A stretch of DNA of 64,000 nt from Candidatus Bathyarchaeota archaeon (lineage in GTDB: Archaea > Thermoproteota > Bathyarchaeia > Bathyarchaeales > Bathycorpusculaceae), in assembly GCA_963715865.1 (NCBI GenBank), contig OY970280.1, positions 1,696,001-1,760,000 of the forward strand. The letters run 5' to 3'. Every line of letters starts with the position of its first letter. The stretch's first letter is position 1. The position numbers and the translations under genes are program-made. Positions 16,959 to 48,042 of this stretch are shown here, piece by piece. Under the pieces are notes generated by a model, which saw only the letters and a list, made by a program, of their open reading frames with translations, searched no databases and was not told the DNA's origin.

Positions 16959-18251
16959 TTATAACTCTCTTATGAACGCGGCGCCGACACCAGGCGGGGC
17001 TTGTCCTGTTTTAATCTGCCAAGCAGCCAAAGCTAATGTGATAACCGTATCATCATGCAGGCCTTCAGGCGCTCCGTATTGAATCAGGCCTGACGGCATA
17101 AGATTGTAAGTGAAAGATTCGAGTTCTGATTTTAAAACTGGAAACTGCTCATCTAAAGCGCTTGAGAACTCTTTTGTTGCTGGGTTGCCTGGGAACCAGA
17201 TTTCGCCATTATCCAGCATAATGCTCAAGTTTTCTATAAGCGCTTTTTTGGTTGTGTTCGTAAGTTTATAACCGCTAACCCCGCTGTATTCACGCTGTAA
17301 TTCGTCGTAGACAGGGTCGCCGACGCCTGTACTATCCACAAGTAACGGTGCATTTCCGAAGCGTCTGCAGAACGCAATTATTCTTTTCCGCTGGAAAGGC
17401 CAGTCTATTTGGTTGAAGCGTTCGTAGCCTACGACTTCGCCGTTCATGCGTAAGGCGATGTTTACGGTGAAATCCACAGTTTTGCCAAGGTCACTGCCAA
17501 CCATAATGGACTCGGTAAAACTTGGGTTATATGGTTTGATGTCGTCTCGTATGCGGTCTGCGATATGTCGGAAGACTACGCCTTCGCCTTCCAGTTCTTC
17601 CGCGTAGATTTCTTGGCGCCTAAGCAACTCGGGCATGTCATTAGCGATTGCGTCAATGTTTGCTTTGGGTAGGAACCCGCCATTTTCAGTTGCGTTGTCG
17701 TAGCTGCTTCCACGCCAACTTTTATATTCTGTTTCAGATAGGTCAAACCCTTTCGCTAATATATAACTGAACCATGTTTTACCTTTTGGCGTACCAATAA
17801 ACAAGACTGACCCATTGTAGTCCATGAGGCTTGGTTTTAACTCTGCTTCCCACCTGTTCGGTTTCAGCATAGGAGCCTCATCAATCGTTAAGTGATGCAG
17901 CCCTGAGCCACGCAGACTATCTTCTCGGTCGGCGCTATGAAAGAAGCATTCGCTTCCATTTTTAATTCGGATATAACGAATAGTTTCGTTGCTTTCGAGT
18001 TGCTTAACTATTAAGCTATGTGGTGTAAGGTCGCGAACTTTCTTTGTTGCAGGAATCAGTTCTTTGTAGAGAGGCGCTACCCACCAAGTTAAACAGTTTG
18101 GGTTTTTGAGCATAAAGATAAGGTTTTTTATCCACGCTAACTCGGTTTTTCCCCATCTTCTTCCAGCTTCAACCGTTTGGTATCGGTGATTGTCATAATA
18201 AACTTCAAGTTGCTTTGGATGCATCCGAAATGGGATGTTGACTATTGTCAA
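16959..18251 (-). CDS. terL: Terminase large subunit
   Basis: Walker A GRRWGKT, Walker B LTIDEA, GTPKG coupling motif, nuclease GSDLGK...HDD. Confidence 0.95.
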   Translation of the reverse strand: MTIVNIPFRMHPKQLEVYYDNHRYQTVEAGRRWGKTELAWIKNLIFMLKNPNCLTWWVAPLYKELIPATKKVRDLTPHSLIVKQLESNETIRYIRIKNGSECFFHSADREDSLRGSGLHHLTIDEAPMLKPNRWEAELKPSLMDYNGSVLFIGTPKGKTWFSYILAKGFDLSETEYKSWRGSSYDNATENGGFLPKANIDAIANDMPELLRRQEIYAEELEGEGVVFRHIADRIRDDIKPYNPSFTESIMVGSDLGKTVDFTVNIALRMNGEVVGYERFNQIDWPFQRKRIIAFCRRFGNAPLLVDSTGVGDPVYDELQREYSGVSGYKLTNTTKKALIENLSIMLDNGEIWFPGNPATKEFSSALDEQFPVLKSELESFTYNLMPSGLIQYGAPEGLHDDTVITLALAAWQIKTGQAPPGVGAAFIREL

Positions 18252-21968: not shown

Positions 21969-23654
21969 TCAAGAAACCTCCTTGAATTTGACGCCCTGCG
22001 CTAGGCAGTAGTAGTTGCGGTCTGTGTGCTTCTTGGCGATCAGGTCCTGCTTTTCTAAATCGTTAAGCGCATTATTGACTTCCTGAGGAGTAGCATTCCA
22101 ACGCTCATCCTGGATAGCTTTCACAATATCGTCCAAGCGGCGCCACGTATCCAACTTGCCTTTCCTGGCGACCTCGAGGATTTTTCCACGCATATTCTCA
22201 GTGTTGATAACTACGAGTTTCTCAGTTGCCTGCACATCCACGATAGTTGTCGAAGCCTGCAGCCCAACCGTAGCGGCGCCTTCAGATGGTTGGCTACTTG
22301 AGGGTAATACAGCAGGTAAATTCTTAGCCAACTCTTCAACTCGAGTAATATTATCATAGATGTTCTGGACATTCAAGGCTAAGCGAAGAGCAATCTTGAG
22401 ATTATCGTAATCCTTCAGCTCCTGATCCTTCGCCTCGAGGCGCTTCTCCAGATCAAACTTCACTTCACCAAGAAACTTTAGCCGCTGCTGCACGGAATCC
22501 GCTAATTTACGGCCAGAACGAAACTCCTCAATCTCGATGCGTAACGCATCAACTTCAGCCTGGAGGATCTTAAGTTGTTGTGCATCAACATTGTTTATCG
22601 ATGCATCTACTGGTGCAGGTGTCGATGAAGGCTCAAGCATCTCTTTTACTGAGAGCTTAATCTGAGCCGATTTTTCAGCATCCTCTAGCTTTTTCTGTGT
22701 CTCACGCAACAGCCGCTTAGTCTTCTCTAAGTCAGATTCTTCAGTGCGTTCTTTTTCAAGTGCCGCCATGATTGATTTTGCGAGTTCATCAACAGTCTGC
22801 TTAACTTCGCTCGCACGTGGAGCAACATATTCCAAGCTAGGAGTATCGGCGCCATGCTTAGTTAGGCGTTTTTCCGTCACCGTCACAAATTGGCTTTGGC
22901 TGCCAAGAACCACAAACCACTCGCCCTTCCCAAACCGCGTCAATTGCTCAGCCCGAATCTCCACGCCATTCTTACGCACAGTATCCAAAACCTCTTTGTC
23001 CAGGTACTTGGTGTCGTGGCTAGCGAATTTGCCGTAAAAAGTCACATTCGCAAGCTGCCGAATCGTAAAATTAACTTCCTGCGGCCTCTGACTGCTCTCA
23101 ACGGTGATAATGTTAAGCTTCCTACCCTGCGTACTGCAATCCTTGAAAGCCTTAATCATCCGATTATAAACCCATGGAGGCGCAATGTGCCCAGCCGTAG
23201 AATTCGGCAAGTACTCCTGAGATTCTTCTGGGAGAATCATTAACGGCCTATGATGCGTCTCCTGCAACTTCATTATCGCATGCAGAAAACGCGAAACCCA
23301 ATCAACAAGCTTAGCTTCATCTTCGACGTCGGAAGTGTAGAAAATCATAGAAATGCCATTTTCAACCACGGCCTTCGCATACGTCAATGGCGCCGTCAAA
23401 GCAAAATCCACATCCTTCGCGTGCACGCCGCCGACGCTGAGAATATCAAACTTTTCTTTGAGCGTAAAGTATTCGTCTCGCGGCTGGAAAATAACGACAG
23501 TACCGCCCTGCAACAGAAACTGCTCAATCATCAAAGCATTATTGAAGGACTTACCAGATCCAGGACCACCAAAATTCGCAATGCGCAAGCCTTCACGACA
23601 GAACGGCTCTGCATCACTATCAATTACAAGGTTTTCACTAAAACGAAACTTCAA
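21969..23654 (-). CDS. HerA/DUF87-like ATPase with coiled coil and C-terminal wHTH
   Basis: Walker A GGPGSGKS, Walker B ILPEESQE, SSQRPQ motif. Confidence 0.85.
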   Translation of the reverse strand: MKFRFSENLVIDSDAEPFCREGLRIANFGGPGSGKSFNNALMIEQFLLQGGTVVIFQPRDEYFTLKEKFDILSVGGVHAKDVDFALTAPLTYAKAVVENGISMIFYTSDVEDEAKLVDWVSRFLHAIMKLQETHHRPLMILPEESQEYLPNSTAGHIAPPWVYNRMIKAFKDCSTQGRKLNIITVESSQRPQEVNFTIRQLANVTFYGKFASHDTKYLDKEVLDTVRKNGVEIRAEQLTRFGKGEWFVVLGSQSQFVTVTEKRLTKHGADTPSLEYVAPRASEVKQTVDELAKSIMAALEKERTEESDLEKTKRLLRETQKKLEDAEKSAQIKLSVKEMLEPSSTPAPVDASINNVDAQQLKILQAEVDALRIEIEEFRSGRKLADSVQQRLKFLGEVKFDLEKRLEAKDQELKDYDNLKIALRLALNVQNIYDNITRVEELAKNLPAVLPSSSQPSEGAATVGLQASTTIVDVQATEKLVVINTENMRGKILEVARKGKLDTWRRLDDIVKAIQDERWNATPQEVNNALNDLEKQDLIAKKHTDRNYYCLAQGVKFKEVS

Positions 23655-23803: not shown

Positions 23804-23879
23804 CAAAAAGCCTCCAAATCGCTCAAGCTACAAACAATCATGAAGGAAACGCAAAAAACTACAGAAAAAGAGGAAGGTA

Positions 23880-23924
23880 TGCGGGAGACATCGCCACTTC
23901 CTAGAGGATAATTACTTATCCTCT
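23880..23924. other. Candidate attR: conserved arm motif plus palindromic core
   Basis: TGCGGGAGACATCGCCACT (17/19 to 44318-44336) followed by AGAGGATAA-TTAC-TTATCCTCT. Confidence 0.55.
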
Positions 23925-34979: not shown

Positions 34980-35206
34980 ACCTTAAGCCTCCAAAGCTAA
35001 TGACTTATCAGCGCTTTTAACATATAACTTTTTTAAAACAACTTGTAAGTTGCTTTTTGAAAAGCCCATTCAAGAGCAAGCGTTTAACAATGTATATTAT
35101 GGCTCTTTATTTAACGATAAATTTTATATGCGTCAATGCGTTGCATAGATAAGTCGTGCAAGAAGCAGTTTTTGCACAATAAACAGATATAAGGAGTTGA
35201 AAAGTA

Positions 35207-35350
35207 GTGTCCGAGAAAGAAATGCATAAAGCAACTTGCGCTGAATGCGGAAAAGAATGTGAAGTTCCATTCAAGCCAGATCCAAGCAGGCCAGTTTATT
35301 GCCGAGAATGCTTTGCTAAAAAACGACCAGCAAGGCCAAGACGATATTAA
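35207..35350 (+). CDS. CxxC-x17-CxxC zinc-ribbon protein
   Basis: Manual translation MHKATCAECGKECEVPFKPDPSRPVYCRECF; GGAG SD. Confidence 0.9.
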   Translation: MSEKEMHKATCAECGKECEVPFKPDPSRPVYCRECFAKKRPARPRRY

Positions 35351-35488: not shown

Positions 35489-35562
35489 GGGCCGGTAGTT
35501 CAGCTGGTATGAACGCTTGACTTGCACTCAAGAGGTCGGGGGTTCAAATCCCCCCCGGTCCA
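35489..35562 (+). tRNA. tRNA-Ala (TGC)
   Basis: Complete cloverleaf, G3:U70 pair, A73, no intron, CCA not encoded. Confidence 0.97.
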
Positions 35563-35665
35563 CTTCAAAATTGTTTTCAAATTCTTGCGAAGAAGAGGTA
35601 GCAGTCGAAGCATAATAACCCGTGAAGCATTTAAGCAACCCTAAAAAAATCGACCCTGCGCGCTG

Positions 35666-35784
35666 TTCAGATCATTGGAGGCCAACTGGCAAGAGAATAC
35701 CGTGCTCATCGCAAAACAGCACACACGTAACCGGTGGATTTCTTACACTGCGCTACCAACGGTAAGACCAATGATAGATCTGAA
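35666..35784. ncRNA. Candidate structured RNA
   Basis: 13-bp closing stem TTCAGATCATTGG/CCAATGAT(AGAT)CTGAA enclosing ACCGT/ACGGT and smaller hairpins. Confidence 0.35.
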
Positions 35785-35876
35785 GGATCAAAGAAGCGTA
35801 TATATCCTTCAACTTAGATTGCTCTGAGCTTGTTTTAAATACTTAAACGCTCCAATTAATATGTGGGGAAGGAATA

Positions 35877-36077
35877 GTGTTGGAAGTACAACATGTGTGC
35901 TTCAATGAGTTCCCCGATCAATGCGTAGGATGCCCAGAATACAGTGAAACAAGGCAAGATCAGGCAACGCAACTCATATTGCTTACAGGGATGGGGATGA
36001 TGTACCCGCCATACGCGAAAAAAATCGTCAAAGAATGCAAGCGGTATCACAAGCGCAAAGTTGAATATCTGAGGTAG
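35877..36077 (+). CDS. Hypothetical Cys-containing protein, 66 aa
   Basis: ORF track; GGGGAAGGA purine tract upstream. Confidence 0.4.
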   Translation: MLEVQHVCFNEFPDQCVGCPEYSETRQDQATQLILLTGMGMMYPPYAKKIVKECKRYHKRKVEYLR

Positions 36078-36421
36078 AAAGAAGCTCAGCGCAACCCCGT
36101 ATAAGCAACCATAGAATAGACAAAGTTGAATGCGGAAACTAAGTATCGGGGAAAAGTCTCGATTTCTATGCCACTTCTTAGATTGCGCTAAAAATAGCTA
36201 AATGAATGCTGGGTGAATTATCATATGAGTCGCACTTTTTAGAGCCGCTTTTCTTGGTTTGGATTTATCAGCGCTCGCCTCCTCTCTAGTCATAAGATTT
36301 GTCCTTGAGAATCGATTCGTAGTCTTACTTATAGAAAAGAACAGAAAAAGAAAACACAGAAAAGCTCACCACTGGCACGAGTTCAAATCTTTGTCACTCT
36401 TAGAAGATGAAAAAAACAAAA

Positions 36422-36481
36422 AATAGGGGAATTGCGGGTGACATCTCCATTGTAGGCGGGGTTCAAATCCCCCCCGGTCCA
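36422..36481 (+). repeat. att-like repeat R1 (arm motif plus 24-bp tRNA-Ala 3' end)
   Basis: 36458-36481 identical to 35539-35562. Confidence 0.92.
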
Positions 36482-36671
36482 TTGTGCGGCTTGAACCCAA
36501 CACGGTTCAAATCCCATAGAGACTAGAACTATTTTGGGTTCAGAACTGATTAGATTCAAGATGTACATTTCAAGTTCCGGGTTTTTCCACTTGTCCTAAT
36601 CGCTTGTTAAGCAAAGCTTTATTCGTTGTTCCACTCATAAATTCTGTTATCACATTCATGGAGGCGAATTC

Positions 36672-36842
36672 ATGGCAAAATGTAAAACATGCGGAACAGA
36701 AGCTGCTTCACCGAGGAAGAAATGGGTTATGGCAGGTAGAGCCGACAAAACAGGAAAGAAAACCCAGTTGGAAATTGGACTTTTCGACTGCGCAAAATGC
36801 AAAAAAACCTTCCGCGCTACCCTAAGCAAAAAGAAGATCTAA
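36672..36842 (+). CDS. Cren7-like chromatin protein with two CxxC pairs
   Basis: MAKCKTCG...KKWVMAGR...EIGLFDCAKCKKTFR resembles Cren7 (KVW...KIGLF...KYFR); GGAGG SD. Confidence 0.72.
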   Translation: MAKCKTCGTEAASPRKKWVMAGRADKTGKKTQLEIGLFDCAKCKKTFRATLSKKKI

Positions 36843-36923
36843 GACTGCTTGAAACTGACAGCACATCAAATCACTCCGTCTTAACTTTAAGAATCCATTT
36901 TCCTTTAGGATTGCCGTCTAAAT

Positions 36924-37097
36924 CTACCCCCTGCCCTTTAACACTTTAAATTCGCCCTGTTTCAAACCCAAATTTTGCATGGCGTATTCTGTTGCTTCTT
37001 TAATCGTACAGAATCCAGCTGGTTTCTTTGCCTCGGTCTTAGTAAATCCCCATTCTGGCGGAACTAAACTGTCTATCTGCAAAACTCTTAATCTCAT
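36924..37097 (-). CDS. Hypothetical protein, 57 aa
   Basis: Strong GGAGGTGA SD; MRLRVLQIDSLVPPEWGF... Confidence 0.6.
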   Translation of the reverse strand: MRLRVLQIDSLVPPEWGFTKTEAKKPAGFCTIKEATEYAMQNLGLKQGEFKVLKGRG

Positions 37098-37353
37098 TCC
37101 TCTCTCACCTCCTCAAGGAAAATAGCGAAATATTCTTTGACGCGACCGTCTCGTTACTTGATGTCTTCGCTCCAGCCATTATAGAATGGAAATCGCTGTT
37201 AAAGCTTGCTTATCCCCCTAAAAAGTCTCCTTCAAGCCAATTTTATGTATCAGAGAAAAATAGGGAACGCGCGGGAAGCTTCTATACACTGGCAACGTAA
37301 GGCTTTTGTGAAGGGTATTTAGGCATCCGCTACACTATAAGAAGCGATGTTTA

Positions 37354-37914
37354 ATGCCGAAGACTAAAGCCATAATAAACATTCAGAACGTTGTTGCTTC
37401 GGCCACTTTAAATCAGAAAGTTGACTTAAACGCGATTGCGAAGAGTTATCCAACCGCAGAATATCGTCCGGACCAGTTTCCCGGATTAGTGTTTAGGCTT
37501 AAGAGACCGAAGACGGCTACGTTGATTTTTGGCTCTGGTAAAATGGTTTGTACAGGAGCAAAATCGGGAAAGGAATCCCGCAGAGCAATCATGAAAGTTG
37601 TTAAAGAACTAAAAAAGAATGGAATAATCATTATTAGCAAGCCGGACTTGAAGGTTGTGAACATCGTTGCTTCTGCAAGTCTAGGCGGAAAGGTAGATTT
37701 GGAGGAGACAGTTTCCACGCTTAGAAACACGATGTATGAGCCGGAGCAGTTTCCAGGCTTGGTCTACAGGATGGACGAGCCTAAGGTGGTCATGCTGATA
37801 TTTGCAAGCGGGAGCCTTGTTTGTGCCGGCGCGAATAAAGAACAGGACGTTTATGACGCAGTGCATAAGCTTCATGAAATATTGGAGGAACAAAACCTCA
37901 TATTCTACGAATAA
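37354..37914 (+). CDS. tbp: TATA-box-binding protein
   Basis: Two repeats NVVAS...YxPxQFPGLVxR...LIFxSG. Confidence 0.97.
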   Translation: MPKTKAIINIQNVVASATLNQKVDLNAIAKSYPTAEYRPDQFPGLVFRLKRPKTATLIFGSGKMVCTGAKSGKESRRAIMKVVKELKKNGIIIISKPDLKVVNIVASASLGGKVDLEETVSTLRNTMYEPEQFPGLVYRMDEPKVVMLIFASGSLVCAGANKEQDVYDAVHKLHEILEEQNLIFYE

Positions 37915-38055
37915 AACTTCATATGTTAATCGCCTTCGTTTGTGCATTCCTTATCGTAGTAAAGCAGAACACGCTTGTACCCGAAAACAATGGAAAGTGA
38001 ACATATGCCTGATCTAACTCATAATACTTTTAAGAGCAAATACGCGCGCAAATCG

Positions 38056-38709
38056 TTAAGCCTCCACAGCGGGTGAATCCGTTGGAGTAATTTGTGATTC
38101 GAAGTCTTCGACGTTGGTGAGGAGTCCTCTTGTTCCAATGCTTAATTGCCTTTCCCCTCTGAAGAGAGAGGCTCGAGCGTTCTCAATTCGAACTGTATCC
38201 CCCACGGAGACACAGCCTATCTGCTCATTCCACAAACAAAGTCTGATAGTTCCCGTCTCATCCCCAATCACTGCTTTAGACACGCTTGCATAGTTGCCAT
38301 ACCTAGTAATAACACGCCTTGGTTCTGCAACCTCCAAGATTTTAGCCTTCAAACTAACGTGGTTCATCCCAGACCGCACATCTCTGATGGAGCGACCCTG
38401 GGCCTTACGCCTCTTCCTAGAAAGATATCTAAGAATCGTGTCGGTTTCCAAGAATTTTCCAAGCGGATTATTTCTCTCCAACAGAAACTCTTCAGGGACC
38501 CGAAATTGCGCAAGGACTCCAACATCATTGGTCATCAAAAAGATTTTTTTTGCGTTTATCTCACCGCGGCACTCGATTGAAATGGGGCCACAGCTGGATT
38601 TCCTGTTTTCTCCAGCTTTGACCAGTGCGCTAAAAAACTCTTCAGGGTCAACTTCATGTTTTACTGAAAGAAAAGCAAGATATGGCCCCATTGACCGTTT
38701 ATGTCTCAA
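38056..38709 (-). CDS. OB-fold single-stranded DNA-binding (RPA/SSB-like) protein with N-terminal extension
   Basis: IGDETGTIRLCLW...GDTVRIENA...GERQLSIG. Confidence 0.85.
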   Translation of the reverse strand: MRHKRSMGPYLAFLSVKHEVDPEEFFSALVKAGENRKSSCGPISIECRGEINAKKIFLMTNDVGVLAQFRVPEEFLLERNNPLGKFLETDTILRYLSRKRRKAQGRSIRDVRSGMNHVSLKAKILEVAEPRRVITRYGNYASVSKAVIGDETGTIRLCLWNEQIGCVSVGDTVRIENARASLFRGERQLSIGTRGLLTNVEDFESQITPTDSPAVEA

Positions 38710-38749
38710 GGTTCTTCATCCTTTTCACTTTTCATAATGCGAGATAATT

Positions 38750-38990
38750 ATGCTCTCTCAACCAGTCTGACCCGTTTCGTCTATACCGCCAAGTGATTTC
38801 GTCTTGCTCGTCCGTCGGAGAGCATTCAGGTTTTGGCTCCAAACAAGCAAAGGGATAGGATGGCAAAGAACGCTCGAACCGTATTCGAGGCAAATGAAGT
38901 GGCGCGTCTAGATCAGAGAAAGCGACGTCGTCTTGGTTTTTCCACGGGATTTTCAATCGGACAGCAGAAGACCAAAACACGCCGCGCCTT
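38750..38990 (-). ncRNA. Candidate structured leader RNA upstream of the SSB gene
   Basis: Several stems plus mutually exclusive pairings of TGCTC (local GAGCA versus distal GAGAGCAT). Confidence 0.4.
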
Positions 38991-39026
38991 AATGGTTACA
39001 TAGCGCTCATATTTCGCAAGGTATTC

Positions 39027-39314
39027 CTACTCTTTTGTAAGCATTATTTCAATCGTTGAAACCATCCGCGCTCTAGTTTCGCCCTCTCTCGGCGGCATCT
39101 CCTCTGTTCCTATCGCGATTTTGCTTACTTTCAGGTCTTTTAGGAAGCGGTTTCTCGCTATTTCAGCTGCGTCAACAGCTGTAGTTATTGCTTTTCCTCT
39201 GGCCTTCAAGGTTATACCTTTAGCATTGCTCGCCGATAGGCCTGTAATTATCGCTAGAACATAGTCCATTGGCATTTTACTTCCAACGAAAACAATTCCC
39301 GATTTTTCAACCAT
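39027..39314 (-). CDS. albA: Second Alba paralogue
   Basis: Close paralogue of 32175-32465; same TTTATAAGGAAG promoter core. Confidence 0.95.
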   Translation of the reverse strand: MVEKSGIVFVGSKMPMDYVLAIITGLSASNAKGITLKARGKAITTAVDAAEIARNRFLKDLKVSKIAIGTEEMPPREGETRARMVSTIEIMLTKE

Positions 39315-40285
39315 TTTTCATCACCATTTAATCATAACGCTACTCCCCTATACTACGCAACCTTCCTTATAAAGCGATTAAACAACAGAGCATCCTGAGG
39401 ATGTTTCAGTGCGGCTCCCTTATCTTAGATTCTGGTTTTAGACACGGCACGCACATTGTGGATTTGTTTGATAAGCGTGTTTTGGCTGTGTTTAAGGAAT
39501 AAAAACCATTTACACCAATTTAGCAACGCGTGGCACGCTTCAGTATTCTTCCTTCTTCCAGATGTTGTATGGGCACTGTCTCCAACAGTATGTGCTTGCC
39601 TTGTAAATACAATTCTCACATTCGAGCCTGTCAAACCACCGTCTACGTCTGCTCACTGGCAGCGCCCTCCATACTCTTCTATACTGCCTTCCTCATTAAG
39701 TCTTGGATTGCGCCAGTTATTCCGTCAGGATAAAATGTATTCATAACCTTCTGAACGAACCCTCTTCAGGTAGAAGCTTATAGCCTCTTTTGTACATGAA
39801 ATTGTCCGAGAAGCATTTTGCCAAACGCGAGTGCACGTATGCCTGTTCCGAAATTGGAAAAAATTGTTTCCATTCGTGGGATTAAAAGGCAGCTTTTGGC
39901 TTCGTATCTGGTTTTAATTTCCTTGGAGAAACCGTCCTTCCCAAACTTGCAAAAGAATCCGAGAACGAAATTAAAACCACTTTTAGCCATTTAGGAACAA
40001 TCATCCGCGCTTTAACTGCAAAGTATAAAGTTAGAAACCTTGCATTTAGTAATTTATTCTACATTAGTGGAATAATGTAGAACCAGTAAAATCCTTGGAA
40101 GATAACCATTATACAGAAGGCGAAATCATGGGCGATCACCGATGCGAGAATTGCGGGAAGGTAGAAAATTCTAGTTGAGCGCTGGGATGATATAGGAGAT
40201 GGCTTCGGCGAATCAAGAAAAGCGCGGTTCTAATTCACAAAGCGTATATCCATGATAGTTGTAATTTATGCAGAAAGGTTTCGAT

Positions 40286-40579
40286 ATGAGACGGTCCAAG
40301 CTTGAAATGTACGTGGATATCCTTAAGGTTCTTGCGTAGCGTGGTCCATTGAAGCTAACTCACATAATGTACAAGGCTAACGTGAACTGCAAAGTGCTGA
40401 AGGAATACTTAGACTTCCTAGTCGGTCACGGCTTGGTTGAAGAAAGAATTGTGGGGAAGCGAAGAGTGGTTTACGCAACTACTCAGCGCGGCGTAACGGT
40501 TCTGAAATACTTCAGAGAACTGGAACAAGTGCTTCCTATAGTGGAAGAAGCCAGAAACGGCATGTTTGTTCCTTTTTGA
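40286..40579 (+). pseudogene. HTH_45-like winged-helix regulator with in-frame TAG at codon 18
   Basis: MRRSKLEMYVDILKVLA*RGPLKLTHIMYKANVN... Confidence 0.8.
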
Positions 40580-40673
40580 CTTCCGTCTAAGTAAAGCGTG
40601 CACGCAAAGTTGTGGCTTTTTTGTTGGCTCTTGTTTTAGGAGGATTTTTCAGTTAAGGGTTCCGCCCCCTTTT

Positions 40674-40700
40674 GGGTTCAAATCCCCCCCGGCCCCACCA
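40674..40700 (+). repeat. tRNA 3'-end-like repeat R2
   Basis: GGGTTCAAATCCCCCCCGGCCCCACCA. Confidence 0.7.
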
Positions 40701-41124
40701 CAACAATCCAAACCCAATTCGCGGATCATATTATTTGGTGCTTTCTGAACAATTTGACCACCTTAAATTCGTATATGAACTCAAAATCAGCATCTATTTA
40801 GGTCCAGATGCTTTCTTTTTGTTTCTTGCTTTTGTCGGGAAATAATAGGGGCTTTTTCCACTGGAAATTGCACACTATTAGTTGGCGTAATCCTTTTTTC
40901 ATTCTTTTTATTGTAGCGAAATCTTTAGCCAAGAAGTTTGAGCAGACTGGCGTAAGTTTGACGGCGTCAATGGAATAATCTGAAGACGATATGTGAATCA
41001 TTTAGAGATAGTTTTCATTTCATCTTAATTATTATTTTGGGTCATGATTTCGGGGTCATAATTGTTTTATTAATTTAACGTCACAAAGGAGTAATATATT
41101 TAGGAAAGATATGGTTGGAATTAT

Positions 41125-42423
41125 ATGCGGATTGGATTCTTCGTTTGGGAGTATCCTCCTTCAATTGTTGGAGGTCTGGGCACTTACGCGGAAAACATAA
41201 CGCGTGAATATGTTTCTATGGGGCATGATGTAACCCTTTTTACGCTCAATCCCGGCAACTTAAAAACAAGAGAAGTTATAAGGGGCGTAGAAGTTCATAG
41301 ACCACTTATTTCGGATGCAAGTAATGTTTTTCCAATGTTTGTAGTGGATGACTTAAAAAAATGGGGAACAAACATCCGCATGTTCAATGACATTTTCACC
41401 TACAACATTTTGAGTGCATCAAAATTCATAAACAGCATGCTGAAAAAGGAAAACTGCAATTTCGACGTCGTTTGCGTGCACGACTGGCTAAGCAGTATAG
41501 CTGGGATTATGGTTAAGAACGAAACGAAAATCCCAGTTGCGTTTCATGTCCATAGTACAGAATGGGGAAGAAGCGGAGGGTCAGGTTCTGGAGTTGTTTC
41601 TCATTTTGAATGGGCAACAGCTGAAAAAGCAGACAGAATCTTGACTGTGAGTCATGCTATGAGGGAAGATTTAGTGAAGCACGGTTGGTCAAGTTCTAAA
41701 ATAAGCGTTGTTTGGAATGGCGTAGATAGCGAACGATACAATTTAAAGAAATGCAAGACTGAAGAGATAGAAGCTATTCGAGAAAGATACGGCATCAAAT
41801 CAGACGAAAAAATGATACTCTTTTTAGGTAGGCTAACGTGGGTGAAAGGGGTCATGAACCTCGTTCAGGCGATGCCTATGATCTTGGCTGAATATCCAAA
41901 AGCAAAACTAGTAATTTTGGGCAAAGGAGAACAACAAAATGACATCATTGAAACCGCACGTAGACTTGGAATAGCAAAAAACGTCGTTTGCAGATTTGAT
42001 TTTGTGCCAGAAAAAGATCGTATCCTACATTACGCTGCATCTGACTTGTGTATCTTTCCTTCAACATATGAACCCTTTGGCATAGTGAGCCTAGAAGCTA
42101 TGTCAATGGAAAAGCCAATAGTTGTGGGTGCCCACGGCGTGGTCGGCTTCAGAGAACAAGTCATGCCCGATGGTCCTGACAAAAATGGTGTACACGTAAA
42201 TGGGGAGAGCCCAAGCGATATCGCATGGGGGATAAAAGAAATATTGTGTGACGATAACAGGGCTAAACAATGGGGCAAAAACGGAAGAAAACGGGTTTTA
42301 CAATATTTCCAGTGGAGAAAAGTTGCAGAACAAACGTTGCAAATATACGAGCGACTCCAGCGCCCAGATGAACAAGATGAACAGGTAACTTTCGGATTAG
42401 TTGAAAAACCATTTGTCTCATAA
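41125..42423 (+). CDS. GT4 glycosyltransferase (glycogen synthase-like)
   Basis: EYPP..VGGLG, HDWLS, EPFGIVSLEAM. Confidence 0.9.
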   Translation: MRIGFFVWEYPPSIVGGLGTYAENITREYVSMGHDVTLFTLNPGNLKTREVIRGVEVHRPLISDASNVFPMFVVDDLKKWGTNIRMFNDIFTYNILSASKFINSMLKKENCNFDVVCVHDWLSSIAGIMVKNETKIPVAFHVHSTEWGRSGGSGSGVVSHFEWATAEKADRILTVSHAMREDLVKHGWSSSKISVVWNGVDSERYNLKKCKTEEIEAIRERYGIKSDEKMILFLGRLTWVKGVMNLVQAMPMILAEYPKAKLVILGKGEQQNDIIETARRLGIAKNVVCRFDFVPEKDRILHYAASDLCIFPSTYEPFGIVSLEAMSMEKPIVVGAHGVVGFREQVMPDGPDKNGVHVNGESPSDIAWGIKEILCDDNRAKQWGKNGRKRVLQYFQWRKVAEQTLQIYERLQRPDEQDEQVTFGLVEKPFVS

Positions 42424-42846
42424 GTGTCTTCCCGTTTCTGCTTATCCAAATCAAACAAGCATGCGTGTTCACTTTTCCCTTTTCCAAGGTTGCCCCGAAC
42501 AGAAGCGCGTCTTCAATCTGAGCCCAAATTGTAACCATGACAACTCATTGTCCAACGGAACCAATTTAACATATGCAAATCCAAAGCAGAAAAAATGCAG
42601 ATTTCACGGATTTTTTCCCGAAAGGCAAAACCCCGCCCTTCCCGCCTCAACTCCAGTTGTTCCCCAAAAAAATAACTAAAATTCGAGCACTTCACGTTTT
42701 CTGCCCTACTGCACTAGATGCACAAGTTGCAAACAACCATTCCAAATCTCATAACATGGAGGAAGAATTTCTAATCCATATTTGGCATTCACAAATCTAA
42801 TTTATTTCCATAAGTTCTTAGATATGATTGATAATGGGCGATAAAA

Positions 42847-43800
42847 ATGCACAGTAGTCTTAGGCAGGAGCGCAAAACAGCGCTACAATTGGATGAAACG
42901 CCCGCTGTTGTTAAAGCAACGGCTGATACTAGAGAGTCTTTCTGCAAGATGCTTGGGGAAGCTATTGACGAGGCATTTTCTTCTCTAGGTGAACCTACAA
43001 GAAAAGCAATATACATTCATCTGAAAAACTCGTTTGGGATTGCGAAGCGCGAAATTCCGTACAGGATCAATGATTTTTCAGATGCGCTCGAGAAAATTTT
43101 TGGACCAAGCGCCAGAAACCTGGAGATTATCTGTATAAAAAACATTCAAGCCAAAGCTAGAATTGACTACAAGTGGGATTTGCCCGAATCGAGTGGGTCC
43201 GAATTGACGTTTGAAGAATACATACGCATCGTTAAGCAGAACTATAAACAGCAAGAAAGCTATCAACGAGCGGAATCAAAGAGTAGCTCCGCCGAGAAAA
43301 AACGGGTAACTCCAGTGGCTCAAGAAAAAACAGATGAAAACAAAGTTACGTTAAAGGCTGTTAACGTGATGGTCAAGAAAGTAATTACGGTAGATGAAAA
43401 AGCGTCGGTCAAAGAAGCAGCTGACACAATGAATCAGTTCGAGATAGGCTCCGTAATTACCACCAGAAAAGGGGAGCCTATAGGCATAATTACTGAGCGA
43501 GACCTTTTGAAACGCATAGTCTCCGAGGGCAGAAACGTAAAAAAGACTAGAGTTAAAGAAATTATGTCAAGTCCATTGGTCGTTATTTCACCCAACACAG
43601 ACTTAGAAGAAGCGGCACGCTTGATGTTCGAGATGAAGATAAAGAAGCTGCCAGTAACCGAACAGAACCGCTTGGTGGGCTTGGTCAGTCTAACAGACAT
43701 AGCCCGCGCTCAGCCGATGATAAAATTCCTGCAAAAACTTGCCGCGACGCAATATACGCCGAAAAGCATACAGAAAGTCTTAAATTGCTACATTGTTTAG
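42847..43800 (+). CDS. NitrOD5/DUF3227-like domain fused to a CBS pair
   Basis: EAIDEAFSSLG...IPYRINDFSDALEKIFG, then two CBS motifs. Confidence 0.75.
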   Translation: MHSSLRQERKTALQLDETPAVVKATADTRESFCKMLGEAIDEAFSSLGEPTRKAIYIHLKNSFGIAKREIPYRINDFSDALEKIFGPSARNLEIICIKNIQAKARIDYKWDLPESSGSELTFEEYIRIVKQNYKQQESYQRAESKSSSAEKKRVTPVAQEKTDENKVTLKAVNVMVKKVITVDEKASVKEAADTMNQFEIGSVITTRKGEPIGIITERDLLKRIVSEGRNVKKTRVKEIMSSPLVVISPNTDLEEAARLMFEMKIKKLPVTEQNRLVGLVSLTDIARAQPMIKFLQKLAATQYTPKSIQKVLNCYIV

Positions 43801-43849
43801 CGCAATGCAATTGTTAGTGCCCCAGCCCGCTGAGGAAGCGCGCGCTCTT

Positions 43850-44170
43850 CTATTGGTTCACCCTTCGCCAGCGAAGTTGAACCTGTACTCTCTTGATGTA
43901 GCCCTGTTTTTCCAAGGAAATTAGACTGCGGTGAACTGAAGTATATTCCTTTGATTTGTACTCTATGATTTTGCCAAAAATCATCTCGGCAATTTCCTTG
44001 GTTGCCATGTCAGGTTTTATCTTTAGCATTTCCAAAATTCTTTTTTGGTTTTTAGAGAGACCAGCCAAATTCTGCAGCACGCTCTTGAGAGCTTCAATTG
44101 TTTTGTCAAAATTTAAATCTTTAACGCGCACTATAACTGCAGTTCTGATGGCTAGAATATAACAAAACAT
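43850..44170 (-). CDS. Winged-helix protein
   Basis: KRILEMLK...KEIAEMI...VHRSLISLEKQGYI. Confidence 0.65.
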   Translation of the reverse strand: MFCYILAIRTAVIVRVKDLNFDKTIEALKSVLQNLAGLSKNQKRILEMLKIKPDMATKEIAEMIFGKIIEYKSKEYTSVHRSLISLEKQGYIKRVQVQLRWRRVNQ

Positions 44171-44310
44171 GAAATATATACGAAGCGCGCATGGTATTGT
44201 GCAAATCCCTTAACGAAATAAATATTTAACTTCGCGCTTGCACCTTAATTAAGGGCACCCGCTACTCGGATAAAAATTCATGCAAATCCAATAGGACCCA
44301 ACAAAAAAAT

Positions 44311-44372
44311 GGGGATTTGCGGGTGACATCTCCACTGTAGACGGGGTTCAAATCTCGCCCGGTCCACTTCAA
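44311..44372 (+). repeat. att-like repeat R3
   Basis: Shares about 55 bp with R1 and CCACTTCAA with the tRNA flank. Confidence 0.9.
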
Positions 44373-44467
44373 CAACACCAGTAATCTAGTAAGAATTCAT
44401 GATGTTGTCAATTTTCAAATGCGTTCCAATCCTGTAACAAGGCTTTAGTAACCGTTTATCCATAACA

Positions 44468-44698
44468 TTGTCTGGTGATGTGGTGAAATTCGGTGTTGTA
44501 GTCGAAAAAGATGAAGATGGCTATTATGTTGCGTCCGTTCCCGAGTTGCCCGGTTGCCACACCCAAGCTAAAACTCTTGATGAAGTAATGAAGAGAATTA
44601 AAGAGGCCATTCAACTTTGCTTGGAAGTCGAAGGAACGAAAGGCAAGGGACGGAACGAACTCGTGGGAGTCCAGTTTGTAGAAGTTCAAGCTGAATGA
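44468..44698 (+). CDS. hicB: HicB-family antitoxin
   Basis: YVASVPELPGCHTQAKTLDE. Confidence 0.92.
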   Translation: MSGDVVKFGVVVEKDEDGYYVASVPELPGCHTQAKTLDEVMKRIKEAIQLCLEVEGTKGKGRNELVGVQFVEVQAE

Positions 44699-44924
44699 GC
44701 TTAAAGCCTCAACCAGCTAAGAAAATAATTAAAGTGCTCTCCAAGTTGGGTTTTGAAGTTGTAAGAAAACGAGGCAGTCATGTTATCCTGAAGCATGCTG
44801 ATGGAAGGCTGACTGTGGTTCCAGTTCATGCAGGAGAGGAAAAGGCTCTGGGCTGCTAAATAAGATAATTAAGGACACGGGACTATCGAAAGAGGAATTC
44901 ATCAAGTTATTAGAAACTGCCTGA
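44695..44924 (+). pseudogene. hicA: HicA-family toxin, 1-nt deletion near 44842
   Basis: RKRGSHVIL...VVPVH then a frame switch to GSGLLNKIIKDTGLS. Confidence 0.85.
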
Positions 44925-44967
44925 CTGACTCAAATTCAACTTGTTACACTTTTGCATCCAGACATGA

Positions 44968-45046
44968 AAAAATTGAATCCGCGGAGGTAATCTCCGCTTG
45001 CGTGGGGGGCTCAAATCCTCCCGGTTCACTTCAACATTATTTTCAA
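44968..45046 (+). repeat. att-like repeat R4 (outer island boundary)
   Basis: GCGGAG-GTAAT-CTCCGC hairpin, degenerate T-arm/acceptor, 45027-45046 matches 35561-35580 at 18/20. Confidence 0.8.
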
Positions 45047-45089
45047 CCACCCTGATAATTTTTGCTTGATACTTCTATTTTCTTCACAG

Positions 45090-46313
45090 TCAATTTTTTT
45101 GTTGTTCTAGCCAGTTTCTTGATTTCATTACCGTTTTCCCTGCAACTTTTAATGACAATGCATCGTCATAGGGGCATATTTCAACGCATCGTGCGCAAAG
45201 TATACACCTTGATTCAGTTACGTCGCCCCCTTTTTTCTCGTACACTTGTGTAGCTTGAGTTGGACAAACGCGTTTGCAAACACCGCACTTGGTGCATTTT
45301 TGTTCGTTCTTCTCCAAGCGTGTTAGGGCGATTTGTTTGAAAGGGGTGAAAGTGCTGAATAAGCCTGTTAACGCGCCTAGAGGGCAGATTCTGCACCAGA
45401 ATCGCCTATAGGCTAAAGCTAAAATTGTGAATGCAATTAAGATAGCTAAGTTTATCGAAGTAAGATAACCGCCTGTTATCCACAGCGGTCCATAGGCTAT
45501 TTGCGAGACGTATGAAAACTTCATCGAGCCTAAACCACATTCGATTAACACGCAAAGGGGCCTCATGGGACAAACTAAACAAAAAGGCTCGTTAAGGTTG
45601 CCTACAAGGCCTGCTTCGGTTCCTTCAGGTCCTCCTGGTCTAGTGCCTGGAATAAGCTGAGCGCCAAAAATGGCGTACGAGGCAAAAATAACACTAAGAA
45701 TCAAAAAAACCGCAATAATGATATACCGTGATTGTCCAAGCGCCGTGTTTGTCTTGTCGGAAAAACGAAAATGCCGCAGCCGTAGGGCTTTGCGAATTCG
45801 TGTTAACACATCCATATATAGGCCGAAAGGACACAGCCAACCGCAGAAAAATCTTCCTAAAACAACAGACGCCACAGCTACCAAGCCGAAAACTATAGCT
45901 AGCTTCTCCAAACCAGAGGTAGAGTAGAAAACCTCGTAGCCTCTTGGATAGTTCCAAAATGGGAAAATGTAAGCTTGAATTTGCCAAATTGGACAAGTAA
46001 CTGTTCGCCCATTAGGATAGTAACATGCTAAAATAGGAACAGATAAGCCATCTGGAAATTGGTTCCCAAAAAAATTAGTCCCAACTAACCGGTCGCGTGG
46101 CGAAGACCCCAAAGGCTGGAATATTGGGACGTTGAAGGGACCTAATATAAGCCCCATAAACACAGCAAAGACGGCGGCTATTTGAATAAAAAATCGAAGC
46201 GAGCTGACTTTACGGGTTTTGTTTTTGGCGAATCTAAAGATAAGATAAATTCCAACCAACACTATCAAAACGTATACAGGTAATACGATTGCACTGGGAG
46301 CCTCCCACGACAT
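45090..46313 (-). CDS. Membrane 4Fe-4S binding protein (NapH/MauN-like)
   Basis: CGWLCPFG, CRICPLG, two CxxCxxCxxxCP motifs. Confidence 0.88.
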   Translation of the reverse strand: MSWEAPSAIVLPVYVLIVLVGIYLIFRFAKNKTRKVSSLRFFIQIAAVFAVFMGLILGPFNVPIFQPLGSSPRDRLVGTNFFGNQFPDGLSVPILACYYPNGRTVTCPIWQIQAYIFPFWNYPRGYEVFYSTSGLEKLAIVFGLVAVASVVLGRFFCGWLCPFGLYMDVLTRIRKALRLRHFRFSDKTNTALGQSRYIIIAVFLILSVIFASYAIFGAQLIPGTRPGGPEGTEAGLVGNLNEPFCLVCPMRPLCVLIECGLGSMKFSYVSQIAYGPLWITGGYLTSINLAILIAFTILALAYRRFWCRICPLGALTGLFSTFTPFKQIALTRLEKNEQKCTKCGVCKRVCPTQATQVYEKKGGDVTESRCILCARCVEICPYDDALSLKVAGKTVMKSRNWLEQQKN

Positions 46314-46380
46314 CTTTGCGCTTCCTACTTTTTATTTAATGCCGAGCCTTTGCTAATTAGCCTAAAGCACTTTCACCAAC

Positions 46381-47067
46381 TTATTTTTCACCCGAATGCT
46401 CTTTGCTTTTCACTTTAATTACGATAGCGACAATGATTGTGACAGCCACTACCATTGCTATTACAATGGCTACTGAATGCTGCTGGTAGAAAGGCAAGTT
46501 TGAACTAGACAGACCATTTCCCCCAAAGTCCCAGTGTGCAATGCTTACATTGCCAGTTACACCAGTTACAACCATTGACCCATCATGCGAAATGCTCCAT
46601 CCTTCACCCTCAGCTATGAAAACATTATTGTCAACAATAACACTCCATTCAACGCTGGCGCTCAACCCACCTTGGGAGACAAAACCAAGGTTTAAAATCT
46701 GCTTACCCTGACCTTCAATCAAATATCTTAACAGTACAATCTGAAACGAGGATGTGTTGTATGTTTGGTAAGAGAAGATTGTAACGTTAGAGTTTTGAGT
46801 TGAAATCTTGAAGTTTTCAAGCGGCTGTGAGCCATTGAGGTGCAAATTTGTAAAGGTCCAAGTGTCATTTTCAAATGTTGCCTCGGAATAGGTGCCATTT
46901 ACGGCAAAACTGATGGTGCCATTATACGAGGGGATATTGAATTTGTCTGCAGGACTGAAAGTTATGTTAGTTTGCGCTTGTGTATTAGGGCAAGTCCAAG
47001 GAAAAACTAAGACAATGACAATTATGGCAATTCCAGCTGAGACTTTGTTGTATTTAATTGTTACCAA
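46381..47067 (-). CDS. Secreted protein with C-terminal TM anchor
   Basis: Signal peptide ending TQA-Q, many sequons, hydrophobic plus basic tail. Confidence 0.75.
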   Translation of the reverse strand: MVTIKYNKVSAGIAIIVIVLVFPWTCPNTQAQTNITFSPADKFNIPSYNGTISFAVNGTYSEATFENDTWTFTNLHLNGSQPLENFKISTQNSNVTIFSYQTYNTSSFQIVLLRYLIEGQGKQILNLGFVSQGGLSASVEWSVIVDNNVFIAEGEGWSISHDGSMVVTGVTGNVSIAHWDFGGNGLSSSNLPFYQQHSVAIVIAMVVAVTIIVAIVIKVKSKEHSGEK

Positions 47068-47223
47068 GCCTCACTGCCTGCATCACTATAAGTAATTATT
47101 AAGTTTGGCTATAAGACTTTTCTAGGGTTCCAGGAAAGTTGCGGTTTAGCTTTCGGTTTGCAAAGGAAAAAGGGCGGGTTTATCCGTTTTGCCTATTAAT
47201 GAGAAGCTGTATAGGAAAATGCA

Positions 47224-48042
47224 ATGAAGAAATCGTTAGTCATAGCTGTGTTTCTCATCGTTGCCATCCTTGTTCTGAGCGCTTCAATACTGGTTTTCTT
47301 GAACAGCAATAAGCCGTCAACAAACTCCTCAGCTGTAACACATTACACTTACACCGTAGTTAACACGTATCCGCATGACCCGAATGCCTTCACTGAGGGG
47401 CTCGTGTACTCGGATGGTTTTCTGTACGAGAGCACAGGACTTGACGGCGGTTCATCTTTACGCCGCGTGGACTTGACCACAGGCAATGTGCAGCAGGAGG
47501 TTATGTTGCCGACTCAGGATTTCGGCGAAGGCATAGCCATAGTCAACAACACCATAATCCAACTAACTTGGCAGTCGCATATAGGCTTCATCTACGACAA
47601 AAACACCTTTGCAGTGCTGGGAAATTTTACTTACCCCACGGAAGGCTGGGGTTTGACCTTTGACGGCAAACAGCTAATCATGAGCGACGGCTCAGACAAC
47701 CTATACTTGCTTGACCCAACAACGTTTCAGCGGACAGGACAAATCCAAGTGCATGACGGAAACACAACTGTAGTAAACATCAACGAGCTAGAATACATCA
47801 ACGGCGACGTTTACGCCAACATCTGGCAAACAAACACAATCGCCATAATCAACCCGGAAACTGGACAAGTCAAAGCTTGGATAGACCTCACAGGACTACC
47901 AGCCGAAAACAATTCAAACCCAGAAGCCGTACTCAACGGCATAGCATACGACCAAAAAAACGACAGACTTTTCGTAACAGGCAAAGACTGGCCAAACCTC
48001 TACCAAATAAAACTAACACCATTAACCGAGCCTACAGCCTAA
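47224..48042 (+). CDS. Glutaminyl-peptide cyclotransferase (plant/bacterial type), membrane-anchored
   Basis: FTEGL, FGEG, EGWGLT, NELEYI, LNGIAYD; N-terminal TM. Confidence 0.92.
   Translation: MKKSLVIAVFLIVAILVLSASILVFLNSNKPSTNSSAVTHYTYTVVNTYPHDPNAFTEGLVYSDGFLYESTGLDGGSSLRRVDLTTGNVQQEVMLPTQDFGEGIAIVNNTIIQLTWQSHIGFIYDKNTFAVLGNFTYPTEGWGLTFDGKQLIMSDGSDNLYLLDPTTFQRTGQIQVHDGNTTVVNINELEYINGDVYANIWQTNTIAIINPETGQVKAWIDLTGLPAENNSNPEAVLNGIAYDQKNDRLFVTGKDWPNLYQIKLTPLTEPTA

Follow-up and report, generated by a model that had tools for sequence, protein, structure and literature searches.

A probable stack of decayed integrating elements of one integrase family at a tRNA-Ala gene of a Bathyarchaeia archaeon

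Downstream of a tRNA-Ala(UGC) gene in the genome of a Bathyarchaeia archaeon, the T-arm and acceptor end of the tRNA are repeated four times in the same orientation, which raises the question of how such an array came about. The locus lies in a 64,000-nt stretch of DNA (the window; contig OY970280.1, positions 1,696,001 to 1,760,000) of a single-contig 2.35-Mb genome, and positions given below are those of the window unless marked as genome positions. Close matches in public genomes all bear the label Bathyarchaeota or Bathyarchaeia. An earlier reading of the letters alone (the sequence-only reading) had described an integron-like cassette array without an integrase, made up either of serial decayed islands or of small cassettes tagged with attachment (att) sites and shuffled in trans by an integrase encoded elsewhere. 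Our analysis favors the former origin, indicating that elements of a single family probably integrated one after another at tRNA-Ala and now form a stack without an integrase.

The tRNA-Ala(UGC) gene is the sole tRNA detected in the window by ARAGORN and Rfam and marks one end of the island. Relative to the three closest genomes, which are 85-89% identical, homology breaks off at 35565, the end of the tRNA, and is back at 47140, just ahead of a glutaminyl cyclase gene. In each of the three genomes the interval from the tRNA to this flank consists of 8.5-11.5 kb of unrelated DNA, and the glutaminyl cyclase gene is syntenic in the relatives G003 and G015, 8.5-11.5 kb downstream of tRNA-Ala. As homology is lost at the tRNA end and regained only at 47140, the island spans 35564-47139, or 11.6 kb. 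The sequence-only reading had given 35489-45046 (9.5 kb); while its repeats and spacings stand, the variable region reaches 47140 and not 45046. A Fer4 gene (45090-46313) and a 228-aa open reading frame (ORF) belong to this variable region and are located elsewhere in G018, G003 and G015.

We refer to the copies of the tRNA end as cores and to the four repeats as R1 to R4. In R1, R3 and the degenerate R4 the core is preceded by an arm. In order, the arm comprises an A-run, GGGG, a 17-nt motif and a 7-10-nt spacer, and the tRNA-like T-loop and core come next. The tRNA, the repeats, the segments between them (S1 to S5) and the right flank are as follows:

35489-35563 (+): tRNA-Ala(UGC), the predicted integration target, with attB regenerated as attL (ARAGORN; Rfam tRNA, 70.7 bits)
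35564-36412 (+): S1, with a 66-aa Cys-rich ORF (35877-36077) and a conserved stretch upstream of it
36413-36481 (+): R1, arm (A-run, GGGG, 17-nt motif GCGGGTGACATCTCCAY) and core, putative attR-type junction (nhmmer, E=1e-16)
36482-40672 (both strands): S2, cargo genes annotated by Pfam
40673-40702 (+): R2, copy of the tRNA 3' end without an arm
40703-44299 (both strands): S3, putative decayed integrase-bearing element (Pfam)
40726-40797 (-): C-terminal remnant of an integrase to the right of R2, 23 codons and a stop, with a stop codon directly upstream
44300-44372 (+): R3, arm and a core identical to the tRNA at 22/24 positions, putative attR-type junction (nhmmer, E=2e-17)
44373-44964 (+): S4, with hicB (44468-44698) and hicA (44695-44859; Pfam)
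44965-45034 (+): R4, degenerate arm (12/17 of the motif) and degenerate core (partial nhmmer match)
45035-47139 (-): S5, with a left end like the integrase-side (P') end of family elements and no arm site at its right border
47224-48042 (+): glutaminyl cyclase, first gene of the conserved right flank (Pfam)

The cores lie at 36458, 40673, 44343 and 45005, with spacings of 919, 4215, 3670 and 662 nt from the tRNA's own end-copy to R4. A 19-nt core pattern matched four times in the window and not once in 100 shuffles, confirming the four copies and the spacings reported from sequence alone. The near-identity claimed for the regions upstream of R1 and R3 was also confirmed, as the two repeats have 67 nt in common at 90% identity, 43 nt of which are upstream and not part of the tRNA. 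Likewise, R4 does have a diverged arm, and its downstream flank resembles that after the tRNA. The R1 core is a perfect copy of the tRNA 3' end (24/24; the 17-nt motif is at 36434-36450), and degeneration is greatest in R4, the most distal. In R2 the core is a chimera: an Ala-type T-arm continues into the acceptor end, CCA and flank of a different tRNA type, itself a common target of the integrase family elsewhere. This suggests either off-target integration or recombination between sites of two specificities. The sequence upstream of R2, at the position of the arm, is not repeated anywhere in the genome.

To place the arm, we turn to its distribution. The motif combined with the T-loop pattern was found in 64 stretches in public genomes, nearly all of them Bathyarchaeia metagenome-assembled genomes (MAGs). 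Among these 64 the arm is constant, and the sequence after the T-loop fits the 3' ends of different tRNAs. The motif alone, with at most one mismatch, is present in 40 of the 201 Bathyarchaeia genomes sampled (27 of 87 genera), often in multiple copies, and a reversed control gave close to zero. About twenty arm sites are found in the window's genome, where further arm-core sites pair with tRNA-Cys (with an integrase fragment between) and tRNA-Leu, and the G015 interval downstream of tRNA-Ala also contains arm sites. When viral contigs were scanned for the arm, nearly all of the 45 matches were discarded as chance matches in coding sequence; two look genuine (L206, and L196 at a contig end).

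Intact elements in relatives have the same layout. The full-length integrase of the family, encoded at tRNA-Ala in metagenome contig L131 (8440-9663), consists of an N-terminal IS1-type zinc ribbon (CxxC...CxxC) and a Xer-like tyrosine-integrase core. In the congener G002 an integrase matching PF00589 converges on tRNA-Ala and ends about 50 nt away. A complete element of only 2.0 kb is present at tRNA-Ala in L089 (2540-4571), composed of the integrase, one 164-aa membrane-anchored ORF and an arm-core site. The arrangement of tRNA, convergent integrase and arm-core site is thus intact in G002, L089 and L131. Elements with SSV-type self-splitting integrases were rejected, as PF16795 (SSV-type) has no significant match in the window's genome and the integrase ORF of intact relatives stops about 45 nt short of the tRNA end or core. 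Overall, an integrase or integrase fragment directly follows tRNA-Ala in 14 of about 58 fetched loci. Metagenome contigs with flanks 83-96% identical to those of the window show all grades at this tRNA, from the full integrase (L131) and an integrase with chromatin-type genes (L127) through integrase scraps (L117 and L119) and arm sites at various distances (L112, L162 and L170) to nothing recognizable in several others.

Two larger elements in the window's own genome also carry the arm. One is a head-tailed provirus of about 40 kb, whose right 24 kb occupies positions 1-23921 of the window and whose left end is at genome position 1680088. Its features in the window include:

16959-18251 (-): terminase
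21969-23654 (-): HerA-like ATPase
23865-23921 (+): provirus attR, a variant arm (23865-23906) and a 14-bp direct repeat (nhmmer)

The motif that the sequence-only reading noticed at 23880, and tentatively linked to a provirus, is a true variant of this arm, located at the right end of the provirus. The 14-bp repeat recurs at genome 1680088 beside a frameshifted zinc-ribbon integrase gene (about 1680100-1681200), a frameshift that could be a homopolymer error of the long-read assembly. The other is a 36-kb element (genome 563805-599891) with a distal arm, a 14-bp direct repeat and an intact zinc-ribbon integrase gene of 434 codons (563856-565157), inserted directly ahead of the start codon of a dinB-like gene for a Y-family polymerase. 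Because integrase and arm are laid out alike in the intact relatives and in these two elements, the arm appears to be the distal, element-side att arm of a Bathyarchaeia-wide integrase family, and an arm followed by a tRNA 3' end would represent an attR-type junction.

We then considered what is left of such integrases at the locus itself. There is no intact integrase gene in the island or the window and no PF00589 match in the island. The earlier statement that the array lacks an integrase is correct for intact genes but overlooks the C-terminal remnant of 23 codons to the right of R2, which we identified by tblastn with C-termini of the family (E=2.4e-4) and whose translation was aligned by eye to 16 of these. 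With an integrase C-terminus in this position, S3 is most readily understood as a decayed integrase-bearing element with R2 as its left junction. The element in L117 that has a 97%-identical copy of the S3 glycosyltransferase (GT4) gene also keeps an integrase scrap. C-terminal fragments of many lengths are scattered in the window's genome and directly follow arm-core sites in other loci, as expected if deletions eat into elements from the inside and cannot remove the tRNA or the core. The first ~20 nt of S1 resemble the P' end of family elements, the first ~35 nt of S5 resemble the P' end found beside integrases elsewhere, and the first ~35 nt of S2 resemble the flank after tRNA-Ala in contig L139.

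Insertion at the tRNA with displacement of older material is confirmed by contig L118, whose flanks are 96-97% identical to the window and which, like L117 and L119, derives from peat and bog samples. In L118 an extra element of 1.9 kb occupies precisely the junction of the tRNA and S1, with homology setting in again at the core; S1 itself is 97% identical in L118 and follows another arm-core site. At its left end the insert retains P' sequence together with ~10 terminal integrase codons, next to which is an insertion sequence (IS) that has its own transposase and inverted repeats. An interpretation of this insert as an integrase-less cassette was withdrawn, as the terminal integrase codons are cut by the IS; the insert is better described as a mini-element with a destroyed integrase.

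Taken together, these results lend good support to the serial decayed islands that the sequence-only reading had put forward as one of its two origins: intact integrases are found at the same tRNA, an integrase remnant and the P'-like ends of S1 and S5 persist in the island, and the repeats decay from R1 to R4. In the mechanism we propose, tRNA-Ala(UGC) would serve as the chromosomal attachment site for integrating elements of a Bathyarchaeia-wide family. With each integration the tRNA would be regenerated, and the distal border would be left with an arm and a displaced tRNA 3' end. A further element would again enter at the tRNA, pushing older ones outward. The window would then hold at least five layers, all of whose integrases may have been lost by deletion, with later gene-level rearrangements made without use of the repeats. 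We infer the insertion order, with R4 presumably the oldest junction. The arm may be bound by the zinc-ribbon domain, and the crossover would occur in or just after the T-loop.

The segments carry the following genes in addition to those already listed:

36672-36842 (+): S2, zinc-ribbon 'Cren7-like' ORF (Pfam)
37354-37914 (+): S2, TBP (Pfam)
38056-38709 (-): S2, OB-fold SSB (Pfam)
39027-39314 (-): S2, Alba (Pfam)
40349-40579 (+): S2, winged helix-turn-helix (wHTH) protein (Pfam)
41125-42423 (+): S3, GT4 glycosyltransferase (Pfam)
42847-43800 (+): S3, CBS-domain protein (Pfam)
43850-44170 (-): S3, 106-aa wHTH-like ORF
45090-46313 (-): S5, membrane 4Fe-4S protein (Fer4; Pfam)
46381-47067 (-): S5, 228-aa ORF

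To what extent was this content brought in by the elements themselves? The comparison among relatives that the sequence-only reading had suggested gave a divided answer: island content varies among relatives with a breakpoint at the tRNA end, but inside the island most homology breakpoints fall away from the repeats. In G018 every island gene has a counterpart of 90-94% identity, and these copies are scattered over different contigs, lack the arm and occupy slots whose flanking DNA is syntenic with regions elsewhere in the window's genome. The GT4 block has three different left neighbors in three genomes; the GT4 gene alone is found beside an arm site in L117, and beside the conserved flank in both L119 and G018. 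In G015 the 106-aa gene replaces part of a hicB-like gene, which the insertion truncates. None of hicBA, S1, GT4, the CBS gene and the 106-aa gene is bounded by the arm in the relatives. A search with the L118 insert across 81 genomes of the genus recovered only its DUF3795-like gene (95%, in G238), with no arm or tRNA nearby. Mosaicism of single genes, which is general in these genomes, explains much of the island content. A separate example of such mosaicism is a 6.7-kb region of G018 (contig C4, 78500-85198; L100) composed of blocks whose counterparts occupy five distant places in the window's genome, with joints mostly without the arm.

Several observations weigh against a stack of decayed elements. 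S1, S2, S4 and S5 are without any trace of an integrase, and S4 measures just 0.6 kb. In R1 and R3 the arms still match the family motif perfectly. As R2 is without an arm and S5 without a distal site, a simple stacking model needs extra deletions. Finally, nine or more co-oriented arm sites on contig 11 of G031 bound single-gene segments of 0.55-1.3 kb, too short for an integrase and cargo, and repeated clean loss of a gene of 1.1 kb is not obviously expected. Such arrays are the best case for an integron-like platform, in which arm-core segments without an integrase would be excised as circles and reinserted at the tRNA or at each other's sites by an integrase acting in trans, the candidates for which are the provirus 12 kb upstream and the 36-kb element. 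This is mechanistically possible, since excision of the DNA between any two co-oriented cores regenerates an arm-core site. Most segments have no integrase (S1, S2 and S4 are att-flanked without a recombinase of their own), and the genome holds one intact and one frameshifted zinc-ribbon integrase gene. G031 and G032 both contain dense, co-oriented single-gene arrays with diverse accessory cargo, and one cassette is duplicated within the G031 array, where the sole integrase scrap follows the last site. The most integron-like example observed, L106 (G031, contig C11, 3500-16100), carries cupin, YdjM-like, methyltransferase and F420H2-reductase-like genes. We nevertheless consider a trans-acting platform unlikely. 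No segment was found with its cargo and arm together at a second location; GT4, the CBS gene, the 106-aa ORF, hicBA and the DUF3795-like gene all occur armless in other genomes; and most internal breakpoints lie off the repeats. The only clean case of presence and absence, L118, bears the last ~10 codons of an integrase, S3 has its own remnant, and sites decay with distance from the tRNA. A candidate for the cognate integrase sought by the sequence-only reading is the family integrase at the same tRNA in relatives. The two integrases resident in the window's genome share only 33-37% identity with this tRNA-Ala type, and the 14-bp cores that they use are different ones. With the integron-integrase model TIGR02249, which has a cut-off of 265 bits, the family integrase reaches a score of 72.6 bits. 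The trans-mobilized integron-like cassettes of the sequence-only reading are thus not supported. A true integron was rejected, as there is no IntI and there are no attC-type sites, and the segments hold one to six genes each on both strands rather than single co-oriented promoterless ORFs. A broader version of the platform, in which arm-core sites form a tRNA-anchored, integron-like gene-capture system and zinc-ribbon integrases from proviruses or mini-elements move single-gene segments in trans, seems to us quite improbable. It is similarly doubtful that the window's array would be one platform of such a system and the dense G031 arrays another.

The arm and tRNA-like end could also be viewed as a functional RNA or regulatory signal copied between genes, such as a tRNA-like RNA, the 3' half of a split tRNA, a promoter or a terminator. 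The A-run and palindrome are promoter- or terminator-like, the motif is strongly conserved across genera, and one arm copy lies about 25 nt upstream of the dinB start codon. That copy, however, is the end of the 36-kb element bounded by its 14-bp repeat. Folding of the sites is no better than that of shuffled sequence (z-scores -1.9 to +2.3), the palindrome shows no consistent compensatory change, the T-stems of many copies are mispaired hybrids, and Rfam has no match at the sites, the tRNA being its only match. Moreover, the cores match intact tRNA genes, so that half-tRNAs are not needed. A structured RNA or split-tRNA half was rejected on the grounds of folding, Rfam and the fit of the cores to intact tRNAs. 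A promoter or terminator was rejected because site orientation is constant within arrays and independent of that of the genes between, which face both ways. We therefore regard a signal of this kind as very improbable, and return to the stack of decayed elements as the reading that best fits the locus.

The kind of structure described here is known in other settings. CIMEs of streptococci and the Xer-dependent IMEX and pdif modules are non-autonomous att-flanked elements. Like these, the segments at tRNA-Ala are bounded by functional-looking att sites, have no recombinase of their own and could in principle be mobilized by a related or host recombinase; unlike these, they gave no evidence of mobilization, and their sites degrade with distance from the tRNA. 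Parallels are also found in archaeal tandem elements of tyrosine integrases, in which site re-use and integrase loss have been described (PMC6563490, PMC8371274). The shared traits are a regenerated target tRNA, displaced 3' ends as direct repeats, re-use of one site and loss of integrases. A 'gene capture' idea for such archaeal elements is attributed to She and colleagues. The differences are the Bathyarchaeia host (such elements appear in neither PMC6563490 nor PMC8371274), an integrase that is not SSV-type, an arm motif conserved among different core specificities and members as small as 2.0 kb. Tycheposons of Prochlorococcus use a small set of tRNA targets and carry niche genes; new arrivals displace older ones into the island, where fragmented integrases and partial tRNAs are found (10.1101/2020.12.28.424599). 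They too are tyrosine-recombinase islands built at tRNA genes by successive arrivals, but they are bacterial, their integrase lineage is unrelated, no shared arm motif has been described for them, and they usually have a replication module, which was not seen in the small elements here. With integrons, which have been reported in Archaea as well (10.1101/2022.02.06.479319), the locus shares co-oriented sites, short segments, accessory genes including a toxin-antitoxin pair and arrays larger than any single mobile unit. It differs in the absence of IntI, in sites that are not attC-like hairpins, in genes facing both ways and in being anchored on a tRNA instead of an attI beside intI. In the literature searched on Bathyarchaeia genomes and archaeal recombinases, the motif and the elements are not mentioned. 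Structures of this kind are known from both archaea and bacteria; what appears to be undescribed in that literature is the family, with its conserved arm and its members of 2 kb.

Mobile elements of Bathyarchaeia, a group among the most abundant archaea in sediments and peat, are barely described. In about a fifth of the sampled genomes, the 17-nt arm 7-10 nt before a core marks the ends of proviruses, 36-kb elements, mini-elements of 2 kb and the remnants of these. This signature is usable to delimit integrated elements and accessory-gene islands in MAGs, and could help to pair integrases with their sites and to probe how an unvarying arm comes to be paired with exchangeable cores that match tRNAs. 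As for the locus itself, it is an ordinary decayed island and would be important only if trans mobilization of integrase-less segments were true.

A few further observations concern individual genes. S2 contains extra paralogues of chromatin and transcription proteins (36672-40579), and in L127 the element at tRNA-Ala that encodes an integrase also has genes for an archaeal histone, a small basic protein and a protein homologous to the S2 zinc-ribbon ORF. As both have chromatin proteins, such proteins seem to be typical cargo of this integrase family. The body of S1 (35578-36242), which comprises the Cys-rich ORF and about 250 nt of conserved sequence upstream, occurs once or twice in G018, G003 and G015, beside tRNA-Cys and not tRNA-Ala; its conserved non-coding part might be an RNA. 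In S4, hicB is intact and hicA reads as truncated by a 1-nt deletion or frameshift relative to the copies in G015 and G003. Directly upstream of tRNA-Ala is a zinc-ribbon ORF of about 46 aa (CxxC...CxxC; 35204-35350, + strand), whose DNA is present in multiple copies in every genome of the genus searched and which has a homologue near tRNA-Ala in L089.

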